DNA of 64,000 bases. Origin: an uncultured Alphaproteobacteria bacterium (GTDB taxonomy: Bacteria > Pseudomonadota > Alphaproteobacteria > RF32 > CAG-239). The DNA lies in NCBI GenBank assembly GCA_934273635.1, contig CAKQSV010000001.1, positions 85,393-149,392 on the forward strand, read 5' to 3'. The notes below the pieces were generated by a model, which was given only the letters and a program-made list of their open reading frames with translations, made no database searches and had not been told where the DNA came from. The translations under genes were made by a program, and so were the position numbers. The stretch's first letter is position 1. Every line of letters starts with the position of its first letter. Of the stretch, positions 4,700 through 41,059 are shown piece by piece.

Positions 4700-5818
4700 T
4701 TAAAACCCGAGGCTGAAACCGGTTATCGCAGCATAGCCTTTGTTGGAATCTTCAGGCGTCTGACCTTTGAACTCGGCGCGAGCCCCCGCCAAATAAAGCG
4801 AAAGGTTGCGGTTGTATTGATAAGCGCCTGACAACAGCCAAATTTTGTCTTTGTTATCCGACTGCGCGGACTTGCTCTCAAAATAAGACAAAGCGGTTTT
4901 AAATGGTCCGATTTCATACCCGACGCCAACATCCCATGCCTCGCCCTCGCGGTAGCCGTCAAACCAATCGGCAAGGCGCGGATTGAGGCTATGCTTGGTC
5001 ACAGGATAATCGCCACCGTCAACATAGGTTTTGCGCCAACTGCCGCCGAGCGTCCAACCGGCGCGATACAGGCTCAAACCGGCGCTGAAATCTTTGTCAT
5101 CTTGATTGAAAATGCCATAACCGAGCGAGCTTACCAGTTCGGCAAAGCCTAAATCCGCGGTGTAATATGCGGCGGCAACATAACCATCATCAGCGGCATA
5201 GCGCGCGCGTTTGTTCACCAGACCGGTGCGATTGTAGGTGTCGGGAATATAGCTAAAACCCAAAGTCAGGTTGTGATATTCGGGAGTGATGTAACTGATT
5301 TTTGCCGCGGTGCCGTCGGTGTTTATTGAGGTGCTGTTTAGGGTTTGATAGGCAGTTTGACGCTTGGTTTTCACCCAGTTGGGATTGGCGATAAAGTTGA
5401 CAATATCGCTGTCGTTCAGCCCCAACTTTCCGGCAGACGGCGCTCCGACGTGAAACTGCGCGGCGGCGTTATAAGTTTCGCCAAACATTACCCGCCCCAA
5501 GGGATTGTCAAAAATACCATAGACCTCGTGCCCCCAAAGACCATTACTATAATTATATTGGCGCTTGTTCACCCCGACCATAATATCGGCAAACAGACCT
5601 AGGGAATAGTCGTCGTTAAAGTTTTTTTCGGCACTGAAATCAGCCTCAAAGGTATTGACAAAGAACTGGCGTTTGTCTTTGTGTTTGTCTCGGTGAGAGG
5701 GAAACGCATAACCGTAAAAGGAGCTCCACTCGCCGCTGAGGTTATATTCGGTATCGGACGCAAAAGCGAGGTTTGGCAGTATCAGACCCAATATGAACAG
5801 ATATTTTATTTTTTGCAA
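4700..5818 (-). CDS. outer-membrane porin (beta-barrel, C-terminal Phe)
   Basis: Ends ...ITGFSLGF and is rich in aromatic, Gly and Asn residues as beta-barrels are. The likely start is the TTG at 5816-5818, with GGAGG 6 nt upstream, giving signal peptide MQKIKYLFILGLILPNLAFA. The ORF-track start at 5881 would add a basic tail that is probably not translated. Confidence 0.7.
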   Translation of the reverse strand: MQKIKYLFILGLILPNLAFASDTEYNLSGEWSSFYGYAFPSHRDKHKDKRQFFVNTFEADFSAEKNFNDDYSLGLFADIMVGVNKRQYNYSNGLWGHEVYGIFDNPLGRVMFGETYNAAAQFHVGAPSAGKLGLNDSDIVNFIANPNWVKTKRQTAYQTLNSTSINTDGTAAKISYITPEYHNLTLGFSYIPDTYNRTGLVNKRARYAADDGYVAAAYYTADLGFAELVSSLGYGIFNQDDKDFSAGLSLYRAGWTLGGSWRKTYVDGGDYPVTKHSLNPRLADWFDGYREGEAWDVGVGYEIGPFKTALSYFESKSAQSDNKDKIWLLSGAYQYNRNLSLYLAGARAEFKGQTPEDSNKGYAAITGFSLGF

Positions 5819-5929
5819 CTTCTGCCTCCGTTTTGTTTTTTTCTCTCGCTCGTTATGACGGTTTCCCTGTCTGTTCGTCACTGCGAGTTTGGTGGCAAAC
5901 GAAGCAGTCCAGATTTAATAAGGATTCCT

Positions 5930-6066: not shown

Positions 6067-6353
6067 CATTATAATTATCACTTGAGGATAGTCAAGGGAT
6101 TATGTTTATCAGGGACTCGGCTGACAAGCTTATATGCAAAAATTAGAGAAAAATTTACTATTTTAGGAGTATAAAAATATTGTTTGTAGGTGTTTTCCAA
6201 CTGTGAATTTTTTGTTACAGGAATTTTTCTGTTGGAAAATCAATGTTTTATCTCATTTTTGGACTATCAGATTTATCTGGAAAAAAACTCCAAAATTAGG
6301 TATTCTAAAAGAGTAGATGAAGTTAATTTATAACATAGACAAGGAGAAAGACT

Positions 6354-6704
6354 ATGAAGTTCTTTAAGAAAAATATTTGGACAATCTGTTCATGGGTTGC
6401 CGTTTTTGCATTGGTAGCCGCAGATGCTTTTGCTGATCAGGGTTCTTCTTTGATGACCACCGCTCAGACCAAAGCTTCTAACGTGTTCCAATCAGTTAAA
6501 ACCATCACCTTTATTTTGGGTGGTTTCGGTTTAATCGGTATCGCATATCAGGCTATTATCGGTAAAGTTAAATGGTCTTGGTTTGCGGGTTTGGCCGTTG
6601 GTTTGGCTCTGTTGGCCGCTGCAGGTGCTATCGTTGAATACGCTACCGGCGCTTCTGTCAACGACAATTTTGCTGACTCGTTCTCTACCGGTGCTTCGTA
6701 CTAA
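6354..6704 (+). CDS. VirB2/TrbC-like type IV secretion pilin paralogue 1 (116 aa)
   Basis: Signal peptide MKFFKKNIWTICSWVAVFALVAADAFA, then two hydrophobic helices (ITFILGGFGLIGIAYQAIIGKVKWSWFAGLAVGLALLAAAGAIV). Size and architecture match VirB2 (compare Agrobacterium ILGPFGQSLAVLGIVAIGISWMFGRAS). Confidence 0.6.
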   Translation: MKFFKKNIWTICSWVAVFALVAADAFADQGSSLMTTAQTKASNVFQSVKTITFILGGFGLIGIAYQAIIGKVKWSWFAGLAVGLALLAAAGAIVEYATGASVNDNFADSFSTGASY

Positions 6705-6748
6705 TAGAGTTTGTTAAATTAGATAAAAAAAGGAAAGGAAGGTTTGTT

Positions 6749-7162
6749 ATGAAAAATTTGATTGAAAATAATTCACAACACCTTCCTTTTGCCTTTTTGA
6801 TTAAGGGAGCAAGGAAGATGTTGTGCGTAAATTTTAAGAAACTGATTGTCACGGCAGTGCTGATGTTTGTGTGTTCTTCAATTTTATTTGCAACAGATTC
6901 TTATGCACTGTTTGAAGATTTATCCAAACACGGCGGTAAAATTTTTACCGGTATGCGTGAGATTATTTATGCGGTTTCCGGTTTTGGTATTATCGCTATC
7001 GTCATCGGGGCGATTTTTGGTAATATTAACTGGAAATGGCTGACCGCTATTATTATCGGTCTGTTTGTGATTGCGGGTACGGCGACAATCATCAACTATA
7101 TGGTTGAGAGCGATGTTGTGACCCAAGATATGATTACCGACAGCCTGAAGTTTGGCGAATAG
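6749..7162 (+). CDS. VirB2/TrbC-like pilin paralogue 2 (137 aa)
   Basis: Core IIYAVSGFGIIAIVIGAIFGNINWKWLTAIIIGLFVIAG aligns with paralogue 1. There is an alternative in-frame start at 6818 (MLCVNFKK...) preceded by GGGAG. Confidence 0.55.
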   Translation: MKNLIENNSQHLPFAFLIKGARKMLCVNFKKLIVTAVLMFVCSSILFATDSYALFEDLSKHGGKIFTGMREIIYAVSGFGIIAIVIGAIFGNINWKWLTAIIIGLFVIAGTATIINYMVESDVVTQDMITDSLKFGE

Positions 7163-7220
7163 GTTAAAAAAGAAAAATTATTTTGTACTGCAAAAATCTT
7201 AAGGATTAAGGAGACGTGCC

Positions 7221-9704
7221 ATGATGAATGTTAAAAATATTGTAAAAGGTGTTTCATTCCTGTTATGCTTGGGATTTTTGGCATGTGCAACCAACGCCAT
7301 GGCGAAGAGCAGCTTTGATGACTATGAAACTCAGTACGAAGATGAGCAAGCGACCTATGGTAATTGCGAAAACGCCAAGAAATATATTGATGAAGGTAGA
7401 AAGTGTGACTCAAGCAGTAAGAAGGCAACTCTTGAAAAAGCTTGTCAGAAATATCAATCAGTCAAAGCAGAATATAAAACATGTATGAGCGGTGGCAAAT
7501 CAGAATCTAAAGCGGCTTATGACGCATTGACGACGGCAAATACTTGTGAATCTACTGCCATAAAAAACATTAAAGAGGCTTTTGCCAGCTGTAAAGCGGC
7601 TATAAAAGCATATAAAAAGGCAGACAAAGCAAATGACAAGAAGAAGGCAGCAGGTGAAGCTAATAAAGAGGCTCAAAAAGCCATGACTACTGCGAAAGCG
7701 GCTTATTATAGGGCTATAGCTGACTGTGAACAAGGGGAGACGTTTGGCGACTGCTCTAAGGCAAATGATTTATATAAAGATTATCAGAAAAAAGCCAAAG
7801 CCGCTGGTAAAACCGCTAAGGCTGCAACAAAAGCAGATACTGCAGCTGCCGCCCAAAATAAGGCTTTTCAGTCTGCTGCAAATGATTCCTGCGGCATTGG
7901 GAGACGGTATAATGCTGACACTGGCGCTTGTGAAGACATTAACCTTGACCTGAGTAGTGAAGACCCTGATATTGCAGGGGTTAAGGCGGACTCAGACGCG
8001 GCCAAAGCTGCCGCAACCGGTAGCTCATCCTTAACCTGTAGTAATGTCAGCAAAAAAGGTGAGGCTAACGGCACATTTGCAATCTTTGACTATCTTGCCT
8101 GCCGTATCACCTTGGTGGTGGCTGATGTTCGCGCTATCGTATACATCTTGGCCGGCTTTGGTATGATTGCCTTTGCTTATGGCGCAATCATCGGCAAAAT
8201 CAACTTTAAGCAGTTGGCAAACATTTTTATCGGATTGTTTATCTTGTCAATGACAACCGGATTAATTGAGGCTATTGTCTTTAATGACGGCACATCTCGC
8301 TTGACTTATCACAACTATTTACCGGACGGCAATCATGGGCAATATAGCTCTGTGAGCGCAGATTGTAGCAGTGACGCAAGCTTGTGTCCGGATGTTGAAT
8401 TGAATGGTATGAAAGCTGACGCAGACAATAGCTCTTGGAGCTTGAGCGACCTTAAAAATACTATTAAATCAGCCAAGAAAGCTGTTAAGACTGCGTCAAA
8501 TACCGTTAAGACCGTTAAAAACACAGTCGAAACTACGGTGAACGCTGCAAAGAACATCGGCAACGCCATCAAAAACGGTGGGGATATTACCGATGTGGTC
8601 AGCAACATTGCCGCCAATGTCAGCAATGTGGTTGGTACCGCGAATATGGCGGCTAACCAGTTGGCAAACAACTATGCCGACCTTGCTAATGATATTCGCG
8701 ATGCTCAGTCGACTGAGGAGCAACTTAAATATCGTGAAGAAGTCGAAAAACGCTATAACCTCTTGAAAGGTAAGTGCGATACCGGCAACTGTAGTGAGAA
8801 CGAAAAAGCCTCTTTGGCTAAAATGGCTGAGATGGTCGATGAAAACAAAACCAAAGCCGACAAATGGGTTGAGAACGACGGCAAAGGTGGCGGTTCGACT
8901 ATCTTGAGTGGTCTTGGTAAAGCAGCAAACATAGCAAGTTCAGCAAACAAAGTCACCTCAAACGTCGCTCAGGCACAAAATGACGGTTCGGCTTTGGCTG
9001 GTGGAGCATTAGGTGATGTTTTAGGCGTAGCTTTCGCCGCAGGAGAGGCTTACACCAGTGGCTCGGATGCTTATGATAAGGCTAAAAGCGATGGTTCTTT
9101 AGACTTCCGCAGCGGTCAGACCAAGAGCGCTGATGACGCCAGACATGCTCAACAAGCCGCTGAAGACGCTTGTATTAAAAAAGGCGGTAAGTTGGCTAAC
9201 GGCAAGTGCATGAGTGATAAAGGTGTTGAAATTGATATTACCACCGGCGCCCGCACTAAGACAGCGACTGACGATAAGGGTAACAAGACGACGGCTACTT
9301 CAACAACAGATAAAGCCACCGGTACAAAAACAACAACGGCTGTCGTAACCGATAAAGACGGTAAGAAGGTATCCGAGACCGTCACGGTTGAAAACAAAGA
9401 CGGCACCAAGACCGTTACGGTTAAAGAAAACGGTAAGAACAAGTCTGTAAGCTATGGCAAAGACGGCAAACTCACCTCCGTTGACGGGCAAAAGGCTGCC
9501 GACCAAAAAGCCACCTGCACCCAGCAAGGTAAAGTTTGGGACGACAAGTTGGGTTGCCGCACGCACGAAGCAGTTTGCCAAAGCGAGGGTAAAACCTATG
9601 ACAGCAATTCTAAAAAGTGCGTAGCAAAGAAAGAGGGAAAGAAAGCCGATACAAAGAAGGGAGCCGCTAAAAGTTCGGCAAAGTCAACAACCACTAAAAA
9701 ATAG
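7221..9704 (+). CDS. 827-aa secreted/membrane chimeric protein: signal peptide, Cys/Lys/Ala-rich domain, VirB2-like pilin core, then Thr/Lys/Gly/Asp-rich low-complexity tail
   Basis: GGAG sits 7 nt upstream of the ATG. Signal peptide MMNVKNIVKGVSFLLCLGFLACATNAMA. Residues ~295-350 (IVYILAGFGMIAFAYGAIIGKINFKQLANIFIGLFILSMTTGLIEAIVF) are paralogous to the two upstream pilins. The N-terminal domain is Cys-rich, with 14 Cys in residues 1-285 (two lie in the signal peptide), and the C-terminal region has a further 10 Cys. Confidence 0.6.
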   Translation: MMNVKNIVKGVSFLLCLGFLACATNAMAKSSFDDYETQYEDEQATYGNCENAKKYIDEGRKCDSSSKKATLEKACQKYQSVKAEYKTCMSGGKSESKAAYDALTTANTCESTAIKNIKEAFASCKAAIKAYKKADKANDKKKAAGEANKEAQKAMTTAKAAYYRAIADCEQGETFGDCSKANDLYKDYQKKAKAAGKTAKAATKADTAAAAQNKAFQSAANDSCGIGRRYNADTGACEDINLDLSSEDPDIAGVKADSDAAKAAATGSSSLTCSNVSKKGEANGTFAIFDYLACRITLVVADVRAIVYILAGFGMIAFAYGAIIGKINFKQLANIFIGLFILSMTTGLIEAIVFNDGTSRLTYHNYLPDGNHGQYSSVSADCSSDASLCPDVELNGMKADADNSSWSLSDLKNTIKSAKKAVKTASNTVKTVKNTVETTVNAAKNIGNAIKNGGDITDVVSNIAANVSNVVGTANMAANQLANNYADLANDIRDAQSTEEQLKYREEVEKRYNLLKGKCDTGNCSENEKASLAKMAEMVDENKTKADKWVENDGKGGGSTILSGLGKAANIASSANKVTSNVAQAQNDGSALAGGALGDVLGVAFAAGEAYTSGSDAYDKAKSDGSLDFRSGQTKSADDARHAQQAAEDACIKKGGKLANGKCMSDKGVEIDITTGARTKTATDDKGNKTTATSTTDKATGTKTTTAVVTDKDGKKVSETVTVENKDGTKTVTVKENGKNKSVSYGKDGKLTSVDGQKAADQKATCTQQGKVWDDKLGCRTHEAVCQSEGKTYDSNSKKCVAKKEGKKADTKKGAAKSSAKSTTTKK

Positions 9705-9723
9705 CTTCTTGTTCTATGGCTCA

Positions 9724-9762
9724 AAAACACCCCGTGTTGACTCTCTCCACGGGGTGTTTTTT
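9724..9762 (+). terminator. rho-independent terminator of the pilin-like operon
   Basis: Stem acaccccgtg / cacggggtgt followed by TTTTTT. Confidence 0.75.
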
Positions 9763-9935
9763 AATGACCAGAAACTCAGAATTGTCATTGCGATGACGTT
9801 AGGGGAAGGGAACGTGCCATTGCCGCTCTAATAATTTAGAGAGGGTATATAAAGACTTCTTCCCTAAATTTTTAGGGAAGACGGATTTCTTAAGAGGACA
9901 GGAGCTAACAGCGAACTGTACTCTTGTTGAAATCC

Positions 9936-10007
9936 TGATGAGTTTAAAGTTATGTTCGGAGTTTTAATTAAAAGGCTTTCCTTTACTATAAACTCACCTC
10001 CGACAGC
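9936..10007. repeat. MITE-like ~68-bp element, copy 1
   Basis: gagtttaaagttatgttcggagttttaattaa...ctttactataaactcacctcc. The 11-bp inverted ends GAGTTTAWAGT/ACTATAAACTC are present in both copies; the TIR is perfect in copy 2 and has a T/A mismatch here. Confidence 0.5.
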
Positions 10008-10186
10008 TAACGCTGCCACCTCCTCTCTAAATATTTAGCGAGGAGGTTTAAACTCACCTCAACCAATTCCGACTAAAAATTTAGAGAGGAAGGATATAGA
10101 AACCTTACCCTGCCTCTTTGAATTTTCAGAGAGGCAAGATTGCTCAGTAAATGCAACAGCATTTGCACTTAGCAATCTGGTGAGTT

Positions 10187-10253
10187 TATAGTTATGCTTG
10201 GAGTTTTAATTAAGTGTCTTTCCCTTACTATAAACTCATCTGGATTTCTAAAA
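10187..10253. repeat. MITE-like ~68-bp element, copy 2
   Basis: ctggtgagtttatagttatgcttggagttttaattaagtgtctttcccttactataaactcatctgg. About 85% identical to copy 1. Confidence 0.5.
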
Positions 10254-10527
10254 AAATACAATTCGTTTCACTCTTGTATTTTAAGAAATCCTGTCTTCCC
10301 TAAATATTTAAGGAAGACATTACCCCCCTCTAATAATTTAGAGAGGGAATAAGTAGCCACTTTACACTTGGATCGCCACGGACGTTGCCGTCCCCGCGAT
10401 GACGTTCGGGACAGAAGTTCTAAAAAAATAATATCAAAAAAAATCATCCTTTGTAAAAAAATTTATTTTGCGATTTTGGCAAAAAATGCTAATATAAGTA
10501 TTATATTATTGTTCTATGGAGGCTGCA

Positions 10528-37240: not shown

Positions 37241-40200
37241 ATGGCTGATATGAGCGATGCTGAAATGAACGAACTGTTTGAGCGTGAGTATTTGGGTAAT
37301 CCGGTTCTCAGAGCGCGCTATGACAGCTATAATGAAGAGCGAAAGGCAGAAACACGAAGAGCATGGATTGCAAGAAGAAGAGAGGGGATTGCCGAGGAAG
37401 ACGCTCGGGCTCAGGCGCAAGCTGATACCAATGCGCAAACCGAGCAAAATACCGACACCGCCACCCGTGAAGATATGCCGACCGGCGGTGACAATCAGGA
37501 AAATGTTGACAATGCTCCCGCACCGACCGAACAGCCGCGTGAAAATGCCGCCGAAACTCCGACAAGCAACTATAACTCCGATGAGTGGCAACAACTGCTC
37601 AGCGGCGAAAATACCGAGTTTTTAAGCACAGCACCTATGCAAAAAGGTATTGACCGTGAGGTGTTGCGCGGTATGAACAAACTGCCGCAGAACTTTGATT
37701 CTCTTGATTTTGAACATCAGCAATCCGCTATTAATACCGCTAAAGCCGACCTTAAACCCGAAGAAATTCAGCAGTTTAATGAAAAAGAAGTTGAGCTGAA
37801 AAAGGCTATCGCCGAACAATATCCGCCCAAACGTTTGGTTGACACCTCAAAACAGTTGGAAGAGGCCGAAAAGCACGTTCGTGACGACAATGTTAAGCAA
37901 TCTATGACCAACACCCGCGCCGCGATTATGGAGACAATGATCGGCAACATCAATCGTTTTGCCAACGGCGAGACGGTGGTTGACCAATCCAACATTGCCG
38001 ATGTTTATGACGGTTCAATGGAAATGTATCAGTACGTTGAGGAGAAAAACCCCAAAGACGAAGAGCTGAAACAAAAATTGGAAACCTGCCGCGGCAAAAT
38101 GAACGCCGAAATTGAAAAGTATGATGAGGCAAATGGTTTTCAAAGTCTTTCGCCTAAAGACGCGGCGGAAATTAATGCAACATATCTACGCGCACAAAAA
38201 CAGTGCAAAGATGATGAAAAATTCAACCCAATTAAAACAAAGAGCGATGATGGCAAACTTGTATCCACCGAAAGTTTGTGGTTAGCGTTTGAGTTTAGCG
38301 ATGAGGCTAAGCGTGAGGAGTTGATTGGCTCATTTAATGAAGCGGTCAAAGAAAAAGCCGCCAGAAGCGTTGCTGTTAGAAACAAAGGCGCCAAGGGTGA
38401 AAAGTTAGACGAAGCTCTTCAAGATGAGATTGACGTAGCGTTCAAAGAAGAATTTGAGCGTATGATTGTCACCAATGAGACGGCTAAATTTGCGGAGGCT
38501 GAAGCGCAAAAGCACCAGAAAGACCCGTCTTATGAGCCGCAACCTTATCCGGCTGACCGTGCCGGCGCCGATGTGCAAAATGCTGTTAACACAATTCTGT
38601 CCGGCACAAAATATAAGGTTGATAATAAAGCTGTTGTGACCGGTTTTGCTCATCACACCAATGAAGGTTTTGGTTACTTGAACCGCTTGGGATCTAAAAT
38701 CGGCAAAGAAACCAACGCCGTCGGGCACATGGCCGAAGGTCTCCGCAAGCTCGACAATACTTGCATTAAGCGTTTTGACCCGTATTACACTATTGCCAAA
38801 ACCCAAGCCAAAGCTATTAGAGGGAATATCGGTCGGCAGGCTCTTAATCAGCTTGCACGTTACGGCTCAAGTTTTATCCCCGGAGGCAATTTGCTTTACG
38901 CCGGTTATGTCGGCGGACAAGCGGCATGGCGTTTGGGCACAAAGTACAGACGTTTGAAAAAAGAAGCCAAAGCCAACAATCGGGCATTTAGCGGATGGAA
39001 GTTTTTGAAAGATCATGCCGGTGAAATTGCAACCAGCGCTGCGGCAACCGTTGCCGCAGGTTTGGGCGGCGGGATGGCCGCAGGCTTGCTTGGAAAAGCC
39101 TCGATGGCTATCGGCAGCGCCACCAACTTTATTAAAACTTTCAAAAGACAAAGAGAAAAAGGCGAGACCTGGAAAAAGTCTTTGGGTGTGGCGGCGTTTT
39201 CCGTTGCCTGCTCCGCCGCCTCGGCTATTGGCACAAGCTCGGCTTTGGGATATGGCATGCACGAAACCGGACTGGATGTTCAAGGTCATCATAACGAGAC
39301 GATAACCGATCATAACAGAATTGAAGAGTTGAAAAACACCGCTCCTGAAAAACTTGAGGAAATGGGTATTGTTCGCGAACATGGCGTTGACCCCAATGCT
39401 GAAGGCGCTTTCAAAGTATCTGACGGCAAAGCCGGTTTTGAAACGCGAGACTATTCTGCCGAGGAACTGAAATATGCCGAAATGCGCAATGACGGCGTTC
39501 GTTACAGCGAATATCTTGATAAACAATGGGTTCATCATGACTATCAAGACCCCAACTCATCAGACCCGTTGGCACACAGCGAAGATGCTCACCAAAACGC
39601 TATTCAGGCTCTGGACAAGCTTGCCGAAACTCACAAGGATATGAGCAGCTATGTTGACGGCAAGTTTGAATCAAACAGCGAAATGTTGCTCTATAAACTT
39701 TATCAAGCCAATGTCTTGGCGCCAAATCCCGATGCGGTTTCTGACAGTGGTCAGCCTATCGGCGAGGTTTTGAGTGCTACCGATAAAGACGGCAATGTCG
39801 TCAACTATCAAGATGTGTTCCAAAAAGCGTTGCGTGGTGAAGAGTTGACTGAAACCGATTATCAGGTTATTCATAAGGTTGAAGACCATGTCGGTGGTCA
39901 GTTAAGCGTGGATGAAAACGGCAACACCACGCTCAATGATGTGGGTAAAATTAAAGACTTTGACCACACCGGTGACGGCTCAAGACCCGTGGACTCTTAC
40001 AATAAAGATGCCGACCCCGGGTATGAGCCCAATCAACACCCCGCAGAAGACCCGATTTATGACCGTTTTGTTGAAAACAAGACTGACTATCGTGAGGTTT
40101 TGCCGTTTGTTGTGGTTCATGACAATCAGGGTGAAAATCGCTCGTTGGCTCAACGAATTGGCGCAAACCCGCATGACTTGGCGGAACAGGCTAAAAAACG

Positions 40201-41059
40201 CGTGAAAGACAAACAAAAAGACCAAGCGCCGACACCCGTTCCGGTTCCGGTTAAACAAGAAAATCAGGACAAAGTGCCGGTGGCAACTCCTGTCACAAAA
40301 CAGGAAGAAAAGTCCGGTTACGGCAAGTTGTTGGCTGATGAATACAAAATTATGTATGGTGTTGAACCGAAAGTTGTTGACAGCAAAGACCCGAGCGAAC
40401 ACCGCCAATATCAGCACTGGATTAATTATAACAACCGCGTTGATGAAGAGCGCAAAGCCAAATATCCCAATAACAACGTTGATATGTATGACTTTTTGAC
40501 GGAGCGCCGCCAAAAGCTCGACAAGACGATTGAGGACGCTAAAGCCGCTAAAATTAATGTGGCAGGCAGGTCGCTTGAGGGTTCGGAAGTGGCCAAAGAC
40601 TATGCCAAGCATCAGGATAATCCGGGGATGTCCGCCGTTATCTGCGGCGCCCGTGAAAGCCTGATGCAAAGCAATCTGACCTCGCAAAACTATAACAACA
40701 AGCTGACGCTCAGTCACTTTACGGAATATGTCGGACACTATGCGCAGTCGGATGAATTTGTGAGTGACGGCACGCGGGATATTCAGCAAAATCCGCAAAA
40801 GAATATGAAGCGTGATATTGTTGATGAAAAGACCAATCCGAACAAGTCTTATCTGGTTTTGGACTTGAACGACTATTATCTGGGCTCAAAAGACCGCAAG
40901 CCTTATGAGTGCTTTAACGTTGACCCGAAAAAGGCTGAGGGTCAGGGCGTTAAGACTGACCGTTGCACCGTGAAAGATGTTTTGAAAAAGATGAGATTTA
41001 TCAGCATGAAACATCCGAAAAATCCGTCTATGGTCCAAAAAGAGCAGAAGACGCTCTAA
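37241..41059 (+). CDS. large hydrophilic protein (1272 aa) of unknown function, with central glycine-zipper hydrophobic segments; candidate secreted effector or translocator
   Basis: No signal peptide. Residues ~545-660 (GSSFIPGGNLLYAGYVGGQAAW, IATSAAATVAAGLGGGMAAGLLGKASMAIGSATNF, LGVAAFSVACSAASAIGTSSALGYG) are flanked by charged coiled regions. Own promoter and terminator. Confidence 0.6.
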   Translation: MADMSDAEMNELFEREYLGNPVLRARYDSYNEERKAETRRAWIARRREGIAEEDARAQAQADTNAQTEQNTDTATREDMPTGGDNQENVDNAPAPTEQPRENAAETPTSNYNSDEWQQLLSGENTEFLSTAPMQKGIDREVLRGMNKLPQNFDSLDFEHQQSAINTAKADLKPEEIQQFNEKEVELKKAIAEQYPPKRLVDTSKQLEEAEKHVRDDNVKQSMTNTRAAIMETMIGNINRFANGETVVDQSNIADVYDGSMEMYQYVEEKNPKDEELKQKLETCRGKMNAEIEKYDEANGFQSLSPKDAAEINATYLRAQKQCKDDEKFNPIKTKSDDGKLVSTESLWLAFEFSDEAKREELIGSFNEAVKEKAARSVAVRNKGAKGEKLDEALQDEIDVAFKEEFERMIVTNETAKFAEAEAQKHQKDPSYEPQPYPADRAGADVQNAVNTILSGTKYKVDNKAVVTGFAHHTNEGFGYLNRLGSKIGKETNAVGHMAEGLRKLDNTCIKRFDPYYTIAKTQAKAIRGNIGRQALNQLARYGSSFIPGGNLLYAGYVGGQAAWRLGTKYRRLKKEAKANNRAFSGWKFLKDHAGEIATSAAATVAAGLGGGMAAGLLGKASMAIGSATNFIKTFKRQREKGETWKKSLGVAAFSVACSAASAIGTSSALGYGMHETGLDVQGHHNETITDHNRIEELKNTAPEKLEEMGIVREHGVDPNAEGAFKVSDGKAGFETRDYSAEELKYAEMRNDGVRYSEYLDKQWVHHDYQDPNSSDPLAHSEDAHQNAIQALDKLAETHKDMSSYVDGKFESNSEMLLYKLYQANVLAPNPDAVSDSGQPIGEVLSATDKDGNVVNYQDVFQKALRGEELTETDYQVIHKVEDHVGGQLSVDENGNTTLNDVGKIKDFDHTGDGSRPVDSYNKDADPGYEPNQHPAEDPIYDRFVENKTDYREVLPFVVVHDNQGENRSLAQRIGANPHDLAEQAKKRVKDKQKDQAPTPVPVPVKQENQDKVPVATPVTKQEEKSGYGKLLADEYKIMYGVEPKVVDSKDPSEHRQYQHWINYNNRVDEERKAKYPNNNVDMYDFLTERRQKLDKTIEDAKAAKINVAGRSLEGSEVAKDYAKHQDNPGMSAVICGARESLMQSNLTSQNYNNKLTLSHFTEYVGHYAQSDEFVSDGTRDIQQNPQKNMKRDIVDEKTNPNKSYLVLDLNDYYLGSKDRKPYECFNVDPKKAEGQGVKTDRCTVKDVLKKMRFISMKHPKNPSMVQKEQKTL

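Follow-up and report, generated by a model that had tools for sequence, protein, structure and literature searches.

Three pilin-type genes in tandem

A 64-kb stretch of DNA from the core chromosome of a human-gut metagenome-assembled genome (MAG) labelled 'Alphaproteobacteria bacterium', referred to here as the window, carries at positions 6354-9704 three adjacent genes whose products contain the core of VirB2, the pilin of type IV secretion systems (T4SSs). An earlier note on this DNA had described the first two, virB2a (P1) and virB2b (P2), as open reading frames (ORFs) of 116 and 137 residues, each with its own ribosome-binding site and each encoding a signal peptide followed by two helices separated by a Trp-containing turn. 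Both ORFs lie where they had been placed, with the Shine–Dalgarno sequences AAGGAG (6341-6346) ahead of the ATG of P1 at 6354 and GGAAAGGAAGG ahead of the ATG of P2 at 6749. The hydropathy profile of each shows an N-terminal signal segment and then two hydrophobic helices, joined by the turn GKVKWSW in P1 and GNINWKW in P2; signal peptides in these two proteins and in the third were called from such hydropathy segments. The AlphaFold2 (AF2) model of P1, built with 53 homologues, consists of a signal helix (residues 2-25) and two hairpin helices (33-68 and 74-98) with a mean predicted local distance difference test score (pLDDT) of 72. Conservation of the first 23 residues of P2, among them an LPF motif, extends to orthologues from 17 species and confirms the 137-residue gene model and its long leader.

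Against the PF04956 (TrbC/VirB2) profile, which has a gathering cut-off of 27.9 bits, P1 scored 40.0 bits (E 4.7e-10) and P2 33.4 bits (E 5.3e-08), in keeping with the family proposed earlier. The two proteins also have the features expected of that family, namely a predicted cleavable signal peptide, two hydrophobic helices and a short positively charged loop between them, and judged by these matches they are genuine TrbC/VirB2 pilins. P1 has 698 homologues, among which the mature part is nearly invariant. P1 and P2 are paralogous (E 7e-16), as had been claimed, with an identity of 29% across 113 residues rather than the approximately 35% given at that time. NCBIfam returned no match for P1, P2 or the third protein, and searches of the PDB by sequence, with P1 alone and with a 53-sequence profile, gave chance matches only.

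The earlier note counted two paralogues and overlooked a third gene, P3, which lies directly downstream of P2 and encodes an 827-residue protein in which a VirB2-like core is flanked by an N-terminal domain of 253 residues and a C-terminal region of 467 residues (Table 1). Its signal peptide is predicted to be cleaved between AMA and K. A hidden Markov model of the core, run on all six frames of the window, recovered exactly three VirB2 cores. The P3 core is 40% identical to that of P1 and 35% to P2; a profile of 23 orthologous P3 cores aligned to the P1 family by hhalign with 99.1% probability (E 1.9e-18), and 15 of the 23 match PF04956 individually (E below 0.01). In the AF2 models the N-terminal domain has pLDDT values mostly of 75-93, with local dips to 65-70, and contains long helices at residues 94-170 and 176-224, while the C-terminal tail (pLDDT 75-91) is modelled with beta strands at residues 657-802. 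The C-terminal part contains 10 cysteines, mostly in closely spaced pairs, those of the tail being 651/663, 766/779 and 786/800.

Both extensions of P3 contain short disulfide-loop modules of the pattern C-x(11-13)-C, four in all, at residues 224-237, 651-663, 766-779 and 786-800 (nucleotides 7890-7931, 9171-9209, 9516-9557 and 9576-9620), each with a Gly-containing turn and each modelled as a beta-hairpin, for example CGIGRRYNADTGAC. The homologues of P3 (n=49) range from 512 to 1389 residues. The domain at residues 361-640 is confined to this family: it matches only 48 of 1.84 billion representative proteins, and these are long proteins with the domain at a comparable internal position, bar a few short fragments. 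Neither blastp nor phmmer related the P3 extensions to other proteins of the virB cluster described below. Limited literature searches retrieved no description of VirB2 fusion proteins or of the T4SS of this clade.

Table 1 Coordinates of the pilin genes, the domains of P3 and neighbouring features (aa, amino acids; TM, transmembrane)
Feature	Position	Strand	Description
virB2a (P1), 116 aa	6354..6704	+	signal peptide ~27 aa, predicted cleavage between AFA and D; two TM helices; GKVKW loop
virB2b (P2), 137 aa	6749..7162	+	signal peptide ~53 aa, predicted cleavage between SYA and L; two TM helices; GNINWK loop
P3 ('X', third paralogue), 827 aa	7221..9704	+	signal peptide, N-terminal domain, VirB2 core, C-terminal region
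P3 N-terminal domain, aa 29-281 (253 aa)	7305..8063	+	Ala/Lys-rich, helical, 11 Cys, strain-hypervariable
P3 VirB2-like core, aa 282-360	8064..8300	+	two TM helices, GKINFK loop
P3 conserved C-terminal domain, aa 361-640	8301..9140	+	conserved blocks in 49-sequence alignment; family-specific
P3 C-terminal tail, aa 641-827	9141..9701	+	Thr/Lys-rich beta-hairpin repeats, short disulfide loops
Upstream motif TGTGAATTTTTTGTTACA, 18 nt	6202..6219	+	conserved; ~135 nt before P1 start codon; candidate regulatory site
Perfect hairpin AAAAACACCCCGTG ... CACGGGGTGTTTTT	9723..9761	+	14-nt arms 100% complementary, 19 nt past P3 stop; likely operon terminator
Porin (PF13609)	4700-5881	-	divergent; conserved beside three pilin genes in subclade
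Winged-helix protein, 210 aa	4061-4693	-	Trans_reg_C (PF00486) at aa 133-208 only, without receiver domain

To judge from their layout, the three genes have the anatomy of one operon: the spacers are 44 nt (P1-P2) and 58 nt (P2-P3), each gene has its own ribosome-binding site, and the set is bounded by an upstream motif and a hairpin. When the 300 nt ahead of virB2a in 62 loci are aligned, the motif shows almost no variation. The window has a single copy of it and the virB3-virB4 locus of the same contig (L111) has none; it may be the binding site of a regulator. The spacer that follows the operon (9705-10515, 800 nt) is packed with palindromic units, CTCTCTAAATATTTAGAGAGG, in at least five copies, and holds two 65-nt direct repeats (9935-9999 and 10177-10241). 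It varies between strains, with a DUF3800 gene at this place in locus L001 and a 71-residue ORF in L003.

Distant machinery and ancestral linkage

The earlier note had reported that no VirB3-VirB11 genes occur in the 64 kb, and this was borne out: among all called genes of the window no T4SS Pfam domain other than the pilins was found, and tblastn with the clade's own VirB3, VirB4, VirB8 and large cluster proteins gave no match. The machinery is present elsewhere in the same genome, where it had been proposed to look. Over 16.7 kb the window matches a 360,640-bp metagenome contig of the European Nucleotide Archive (ERZ27287379:k141_438620) at 99.994% identity, and scaffold_69 of ERZ28614883 at 100%. 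On the former, an 811-residue VirB4 (P0319, a member of VirB4 cluster P0220) is encoded at ~44-46.5 kb and the three pilin genes, with P3 in its exact sequence, at ~91.7-95 kb. Ten kilobases were read on each side of VirB4; the virB cluster comprises virB3, virB4, two copies of virB8 and four large genes that match no family, with no VirB5 or VirB6 family match among its ORFs in view and without a VirB2 core of its own. Pilin genes and machinery are thus scattered, ~45 kb apart on opposite strands and on either side of dnaA, with the machinery ~39 kb past the left edge of the window. With profile matches above the cut-off, a signal peptide plus two helices in both small proteins and a T4SS in the genome, nothing was found of what the earlier note had named as fatal to its proposal. 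The same contig also carries, at ~46.5-56.5 kb (L111:1-9621), a type IVb (Tcp/Bfp-like) pilus cluster with genes for TcpQ, a secretin, PilO, T2SSE, T2SSF and a PilS-like pilin.

A chimeric query joining P3 to a consensus VirB4 was run against GTDB species genomes and yielded 80 loci from gut and rumen MAGs. Sixty-four of the 80 species have one to four VirB2 cores, mostly three, directly upstream of virB3-virB4; of the remaining 16, eight have a full upstream flank and no VirB2 core, and eight are cut by a contig end. In relatives further removed, these three genes are followed at once by genes for a 96-residue VirB3-like protein, an 810-residue VirB4 (PF03135), four large proteins without a Pfam match, two VirB8 proteins with the gene for a small VirB7-like lipoprotein between them and, finally, VirB9/CagX. 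A type IVb (Tcp-like) pilus cluster precedes the pilin genes of these relatives in divergent orientation and, by called genes or tblastn, adjoins the T4SS in the clade members examined. In the window species and four related ones the orientation of this cluster is reversed, so that it runs straight into virB3. Since most relatives have the pilin genes directly upstream of virB3-virB4, the separation in the window species is derived, and by this comparison of gene orders it is a recent rearrangement limited to one subclade; the orientations would be consistent with an inversion that had one of its breakpoints between P3 and virB3. The split arrangement occurs with intact genes in at least five species, whose VirB4 proteins are 91-92% identical. 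In the closest relative for which both loci are in view, a locus with the pilin genes standing alone (L010) and a virB4 locus without upstream pilin genes (L110) lie ~55 kb apart on one 135,834-bp contig, the same split as in the window. Taken alone, P1 and P2 are ordinary T4SS pilins parted from the remaining genes by genome rearrangement.

In the virB4 clusters of two split relatives a secreted coiled-coil protein (L110:16190-17764 and L052:15520-17169) has at its C-terminus a VirB2a-like core that shares ~52% identity with mature P1. The orthologous 476-residue protein of the window species is without the core.

TrbC/VirB2 pilins are typical of conjugation systems, and on this ground the locus could be ascribed to a conjugative element, either an integrative conjugative element or a plasmid-derived T4SS, for which P1-P3 would build a mating pilus used in DNA transfer. 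We consider this very unlikely. The pilin locus lies in the core chromosome ~8 kb from dnaA-dnaN-recF, which are just upstream of the window, and the window itself includes rpsA, dnaK, gyrB, gidAB and parAB. The GC content at third codon positions of the three pilin genes (0.44) is like that of rpsA and dnaK, indicating native composition, and no relaxase, coupling protein, integrase or element boundaries, repeats included, were found within 10 kb of either locus or in the 64-kb window. Moreover, across more than 100 protein clusters VirB4 keeps an identity of 83-96%, which, together with the synteny of the type IVb pilus cluster in the relatives examined, fits vertical inheritance and argues against a conjugative element.

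The earlier note had compared the locus with the scattered, duplicated rvh-type T4SS loci of Rickettsiales-like bacteria. The scattering is confirmed at 45 kb, and so is an alphaproteobacterial host. A Rickettsiales-like host is not: the 80 loci are labelled Alphaproteobacteria, Azospirillum sp., Rhodospirillales or Ca. Scatocola, the last of these filed under Rhodospirillales, with a single locus labelled Rickettsiales. Judged from these labels, the hosts are not established Rickettsiales, and the split, as described above, is a derived state of one subclade.

Upstream of the operon the window has the divergent porin and winged-helix genes listed in Table 1. The order regulator-porin-three pilin genes is identical in loci L001-L006, L010 and L030, and the genes further downstream differ; a functional link of the porin and the winged-helix protein to the pilin genes is putative at most. 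A 1272-residue ORF beside dnaJ (37241-41059) has no Pfam or NCBIfam match, and in L010 and L030 the regulator-porin-pilin block is immediately preceded by its orthologue. It was considered as the large protein of the T4SS cluster and ruled out, as tblastn detected no similarity.

Strain variation and elaboration of the third gene

The window was compared with four other strains of the same species. No strain has a disrupted reading frame in any of the three genes. P1 shows no nonsynonymous divergence (dN = 0) at synonymous divergence (dS) of up to 0.18, and P2 shows dN of 0-0.017 and dN/dS of 0-0.2. The dN/dS of P3 is 0.17-0.36, compared with 0.02-0.08 in flanking genes. The N-terminal domain of P3 (residues 29-281) is only 58-64% identical to that of the window in three of the four strains, the flanking genes of which are 98-99.7% identical in two and 94-97% in the third. 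In the same three strains the signal peptide of P3 is 100% identical, its core 95-100% and its C-terminal part 82-99%. This amounts to a mosaic, allele-replacement pattern. The earlier note had drawn a parallel with loci in which extra virB2 copies would provide surface variation; with P1 unchanged at the protein level and the variation concentrated in residues 29-281 of P3, the variable surface component would be the N-terminal domain of P3 and not the small pilins.

These data also bear on the idea that the three genes are stranded remnants that have left T4SS service and are either decaying or have taken on a new, T4SS-independent membrane role beside the porin. A distance of 45 kb, with dnaA in between, does separate them from the machinery, they are always found beside the porin and the winged-helix protein in the subclade, and the VirB2a-like core fused inside the virB4 cluster of two split relatives could replace lost pilins. 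However, the intact frames and the constraint on P1 and P2 are not those of decaying genes, and the upstream motif TGTGAATTTTTTGTTACA, common to species with the linked arrangement, has been retained. The split persists with intact genes in the species with 91-92% identical VirB4 described above, and because the virB4 cluster of the window species is without a VirB2 core of its own, it needs the distant pilin genes. We regard abandonment of the pilin genes as the least probable of the alternatives considered here.

Across the 80 species the third gene runs through a series of forms. In the most distant group it encodes plain pilins of 118-137 residues; elsewhere the core follows the signal peptide directly and carries a C-terminal extension (245-570 residues in total), or there is an N-terminal extension only (256-272 residues), or both extensions are present (634-1801 residues), as in the window. 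In some species the orthologues of P2 also have N-terminal extensions (226-418 residues), and some ORFs have two tandem VirB2 cores; such extended or double-core second or third VirB2 genes occur in loci L049, L050, L051, L107, L090, L093 and L096.

P3 might instead be a periplasmic part anchored in the inner membrane, such as a pilus-base or stalk protein or a VirB5/VirB6-like assembly factor, that reuses the pilin hairpin as its anchor. Its large extensions may not suit packing into a pilus, no VirB5 or VirB6 is recognized in the cluster, and residues 361-640 are conserved, as would be expected of a part that contacts the machine. Yet hypervariability and mosaicism such as that of the N-terminal domain typify antigens exposed at the surface rather than periplasmic parts of a machine, and the third paralogue spans the range from a plain 118-residue pilin to 1801 residues in relatives, a gradual size series that suggests additions to a working pilin. 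Such a periplasmic role is thus unlikely, although it has more in its favour than the two alternatives discussed above.

A proposed pilin module with a fused variable domain

We propose that positions 6354-9704 are a three-gene operon forming the pilin module of a vertically inherited chromosomal T4SS in an uncultured human-gut alphaproteobacterium. This interpretation, which is probably correct, draws on the family membership of the proteins, the anatomy of the operon, the distant machinery, the ancestral linkage and the pattern of selection. The three products would be exported by Sec and cleaved by signal peptidase I, and each would then sit in the inner membrane as a hairpin of helices, its short basic loop cytoplasmic and both its ends periplasmic. 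The invariant P1 would be the major pilin and P2 a second structural pilin, while P3 would be a surface or tip protein that is anchored by its pilin hairpin, carries two large domains rich in disulfide-forming cysteines, of which the N-terminal one varies between strains, and possibly stands in for the VirB5 that is unrecognized in the cluster. Extraction and polymerization of the pilins would be carried out by the machinery encoded ~45 kb away, comprising VirB3, the VirB4 ATPase, two VirB8 proteins and a VirB7-like lipoprotein, with VirB9 in relatives; a rearrangement in the subclade would have parted the pilin genes from it. VirB2 and TraA pilins are located in the inner membrane with both termini periplasmic and the loop cytoplasmic, and the termini face outward in assembled F and T pili. 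If the VirB2 topology applies to P3, both of its extensions would at first be periplasmic and, after assembly, external, a location that fits their many paired cysteines.

Several points weigh against the proposal. No VirB2, TraA or TrbC pilin was retrieved from among the solved structures, either by sequence or by fold, so that membership in the pilin family rests on the Pfam matches and gene context; comparing folds tells little about a shape as simple as a two-helix hairpin. On its own, P3 reaches 10.2 bits against PF04956, below the cut-off of 27.9. The 10 kb read on either side of VirB4 showed no VirB6, VirB10, VirB11 or coupling protein, nor a VirB9 or VirD4 of the window genome. Extensions of 250 and 470 residues may be hard to fit in a tightly packed pilus, and P3 might remain in the inner membrane. 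The roles of the three proteins, the display of P3 at the surface and a secreted or bound partner are what we infer from the data above.

Tentatively, and with somewhat less than even confidence, we take a further step and suggest that the product of the third gene belongs to a hitherto undescribed class of VirB2 'pilin-fusion' proteins, 245-1801 residues in length. Their T4SS pilin hairpin, bearing large Cys-rich domains that are swapped between strains, could make them natural pilin-display adhesins that take the place of VirB5 at the tip or along the side of the pilus. The T4SS they belong to would be vertically inherited and a core trait of a widespread clade of uncultured Alphaproteobacteria from gut and rumen. 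A highly conserved chromosomal T4SS is paired with a type IVb pilus cluster across many poorly known species of gut and rumen alphaproteobacteria, its third pilin paralogue has been elaborated stepwise from a plain pilin to as many as 1801 residues, and within one human-gut species only the N-terminal domain of P3 differs between strains in the manner described. If P3 is displayed on the pilus, this would be a new way of building a variable T4SS adhesin and would offer a concrete handle on what these uncultured bacteria attach to in the gut. A pilin-display adhesin would, in addition, suggest a way of life that depends on contact with host cells, protists or other bacteria.

The window pilins resemble VirB2 of Agrobacterium (the T-pilin) and TrbC of RP4 in their small size, cleaved signal peptide (long in P2), hydrophobic hairpin and short basic loop, and in the position of their genes directly upstream of virB3-virB4 in most relatives. 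They differ in having no detectable sequence or fold match to solved pilins and in that the operon has three paralogues, one of them with extensions of hundreds of residues. VirB5, a minor pilin and tip adhesin, is comparable to P3 in proposed role only, that of a minor, exposed, binding component of the pilus. VirB5 proteins are soluble periplasmic helical bundles, whereas P3 is membrane-anchored via its VirB2 hairpin and has no sequence or fold similarity to VirB5.

Tandem duplication of a pilin gene is also seen in the Trw system of Bartonella, where the copies of trwL, a virB2 homologue, give rise to variant surface-exposed pilus components thought to adapt binding to host-specific receptors (PMC2610397). 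However, the Trw copies are all small pilins, trwJ (virB5) is co-amplified and the system originated from a plasmid conjugation system, whereas in the window the variation lies in the fused domains of one paralogue and no VirB5 is recognized. The rvh T4SS of Anaplasma phagocytophilum is split into separate loci and has 8-15 virB2 copies, with VirB2 and VirB6 the most variable and presumably exposed components (PMC3556328). Both systems are alphaproteobacterial chromosomal T4SSs divided into loci, with several virB2 paralogues and a duplicated virB8, the window genome having two virB8 genes and three VirB2 cores in loci 45 kb apart. Both also have large extensions on membrane components, although these are found on VirB6-4 in rvh and on a VirB2 paralogue, not VirB6, in the window. 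The rvh type is further characterized by duplicated virB4, virB6, virB8 and virB9 genes and by the lack of virB5; in the part of the virB cluster read here, two virB8 genes and no VirB5 match were observed. Unlike rvh, the system described here occurs in hosts that are not established Rickettsiales, its small VirB2 copies, far from being the most diverse subunits, do not vary, and its split is recent and limited to a subclade. The separation of T4SS pilin genes from the machinery is already known in kind, and what is new is the large, strain-variable pilin-fusion protein.

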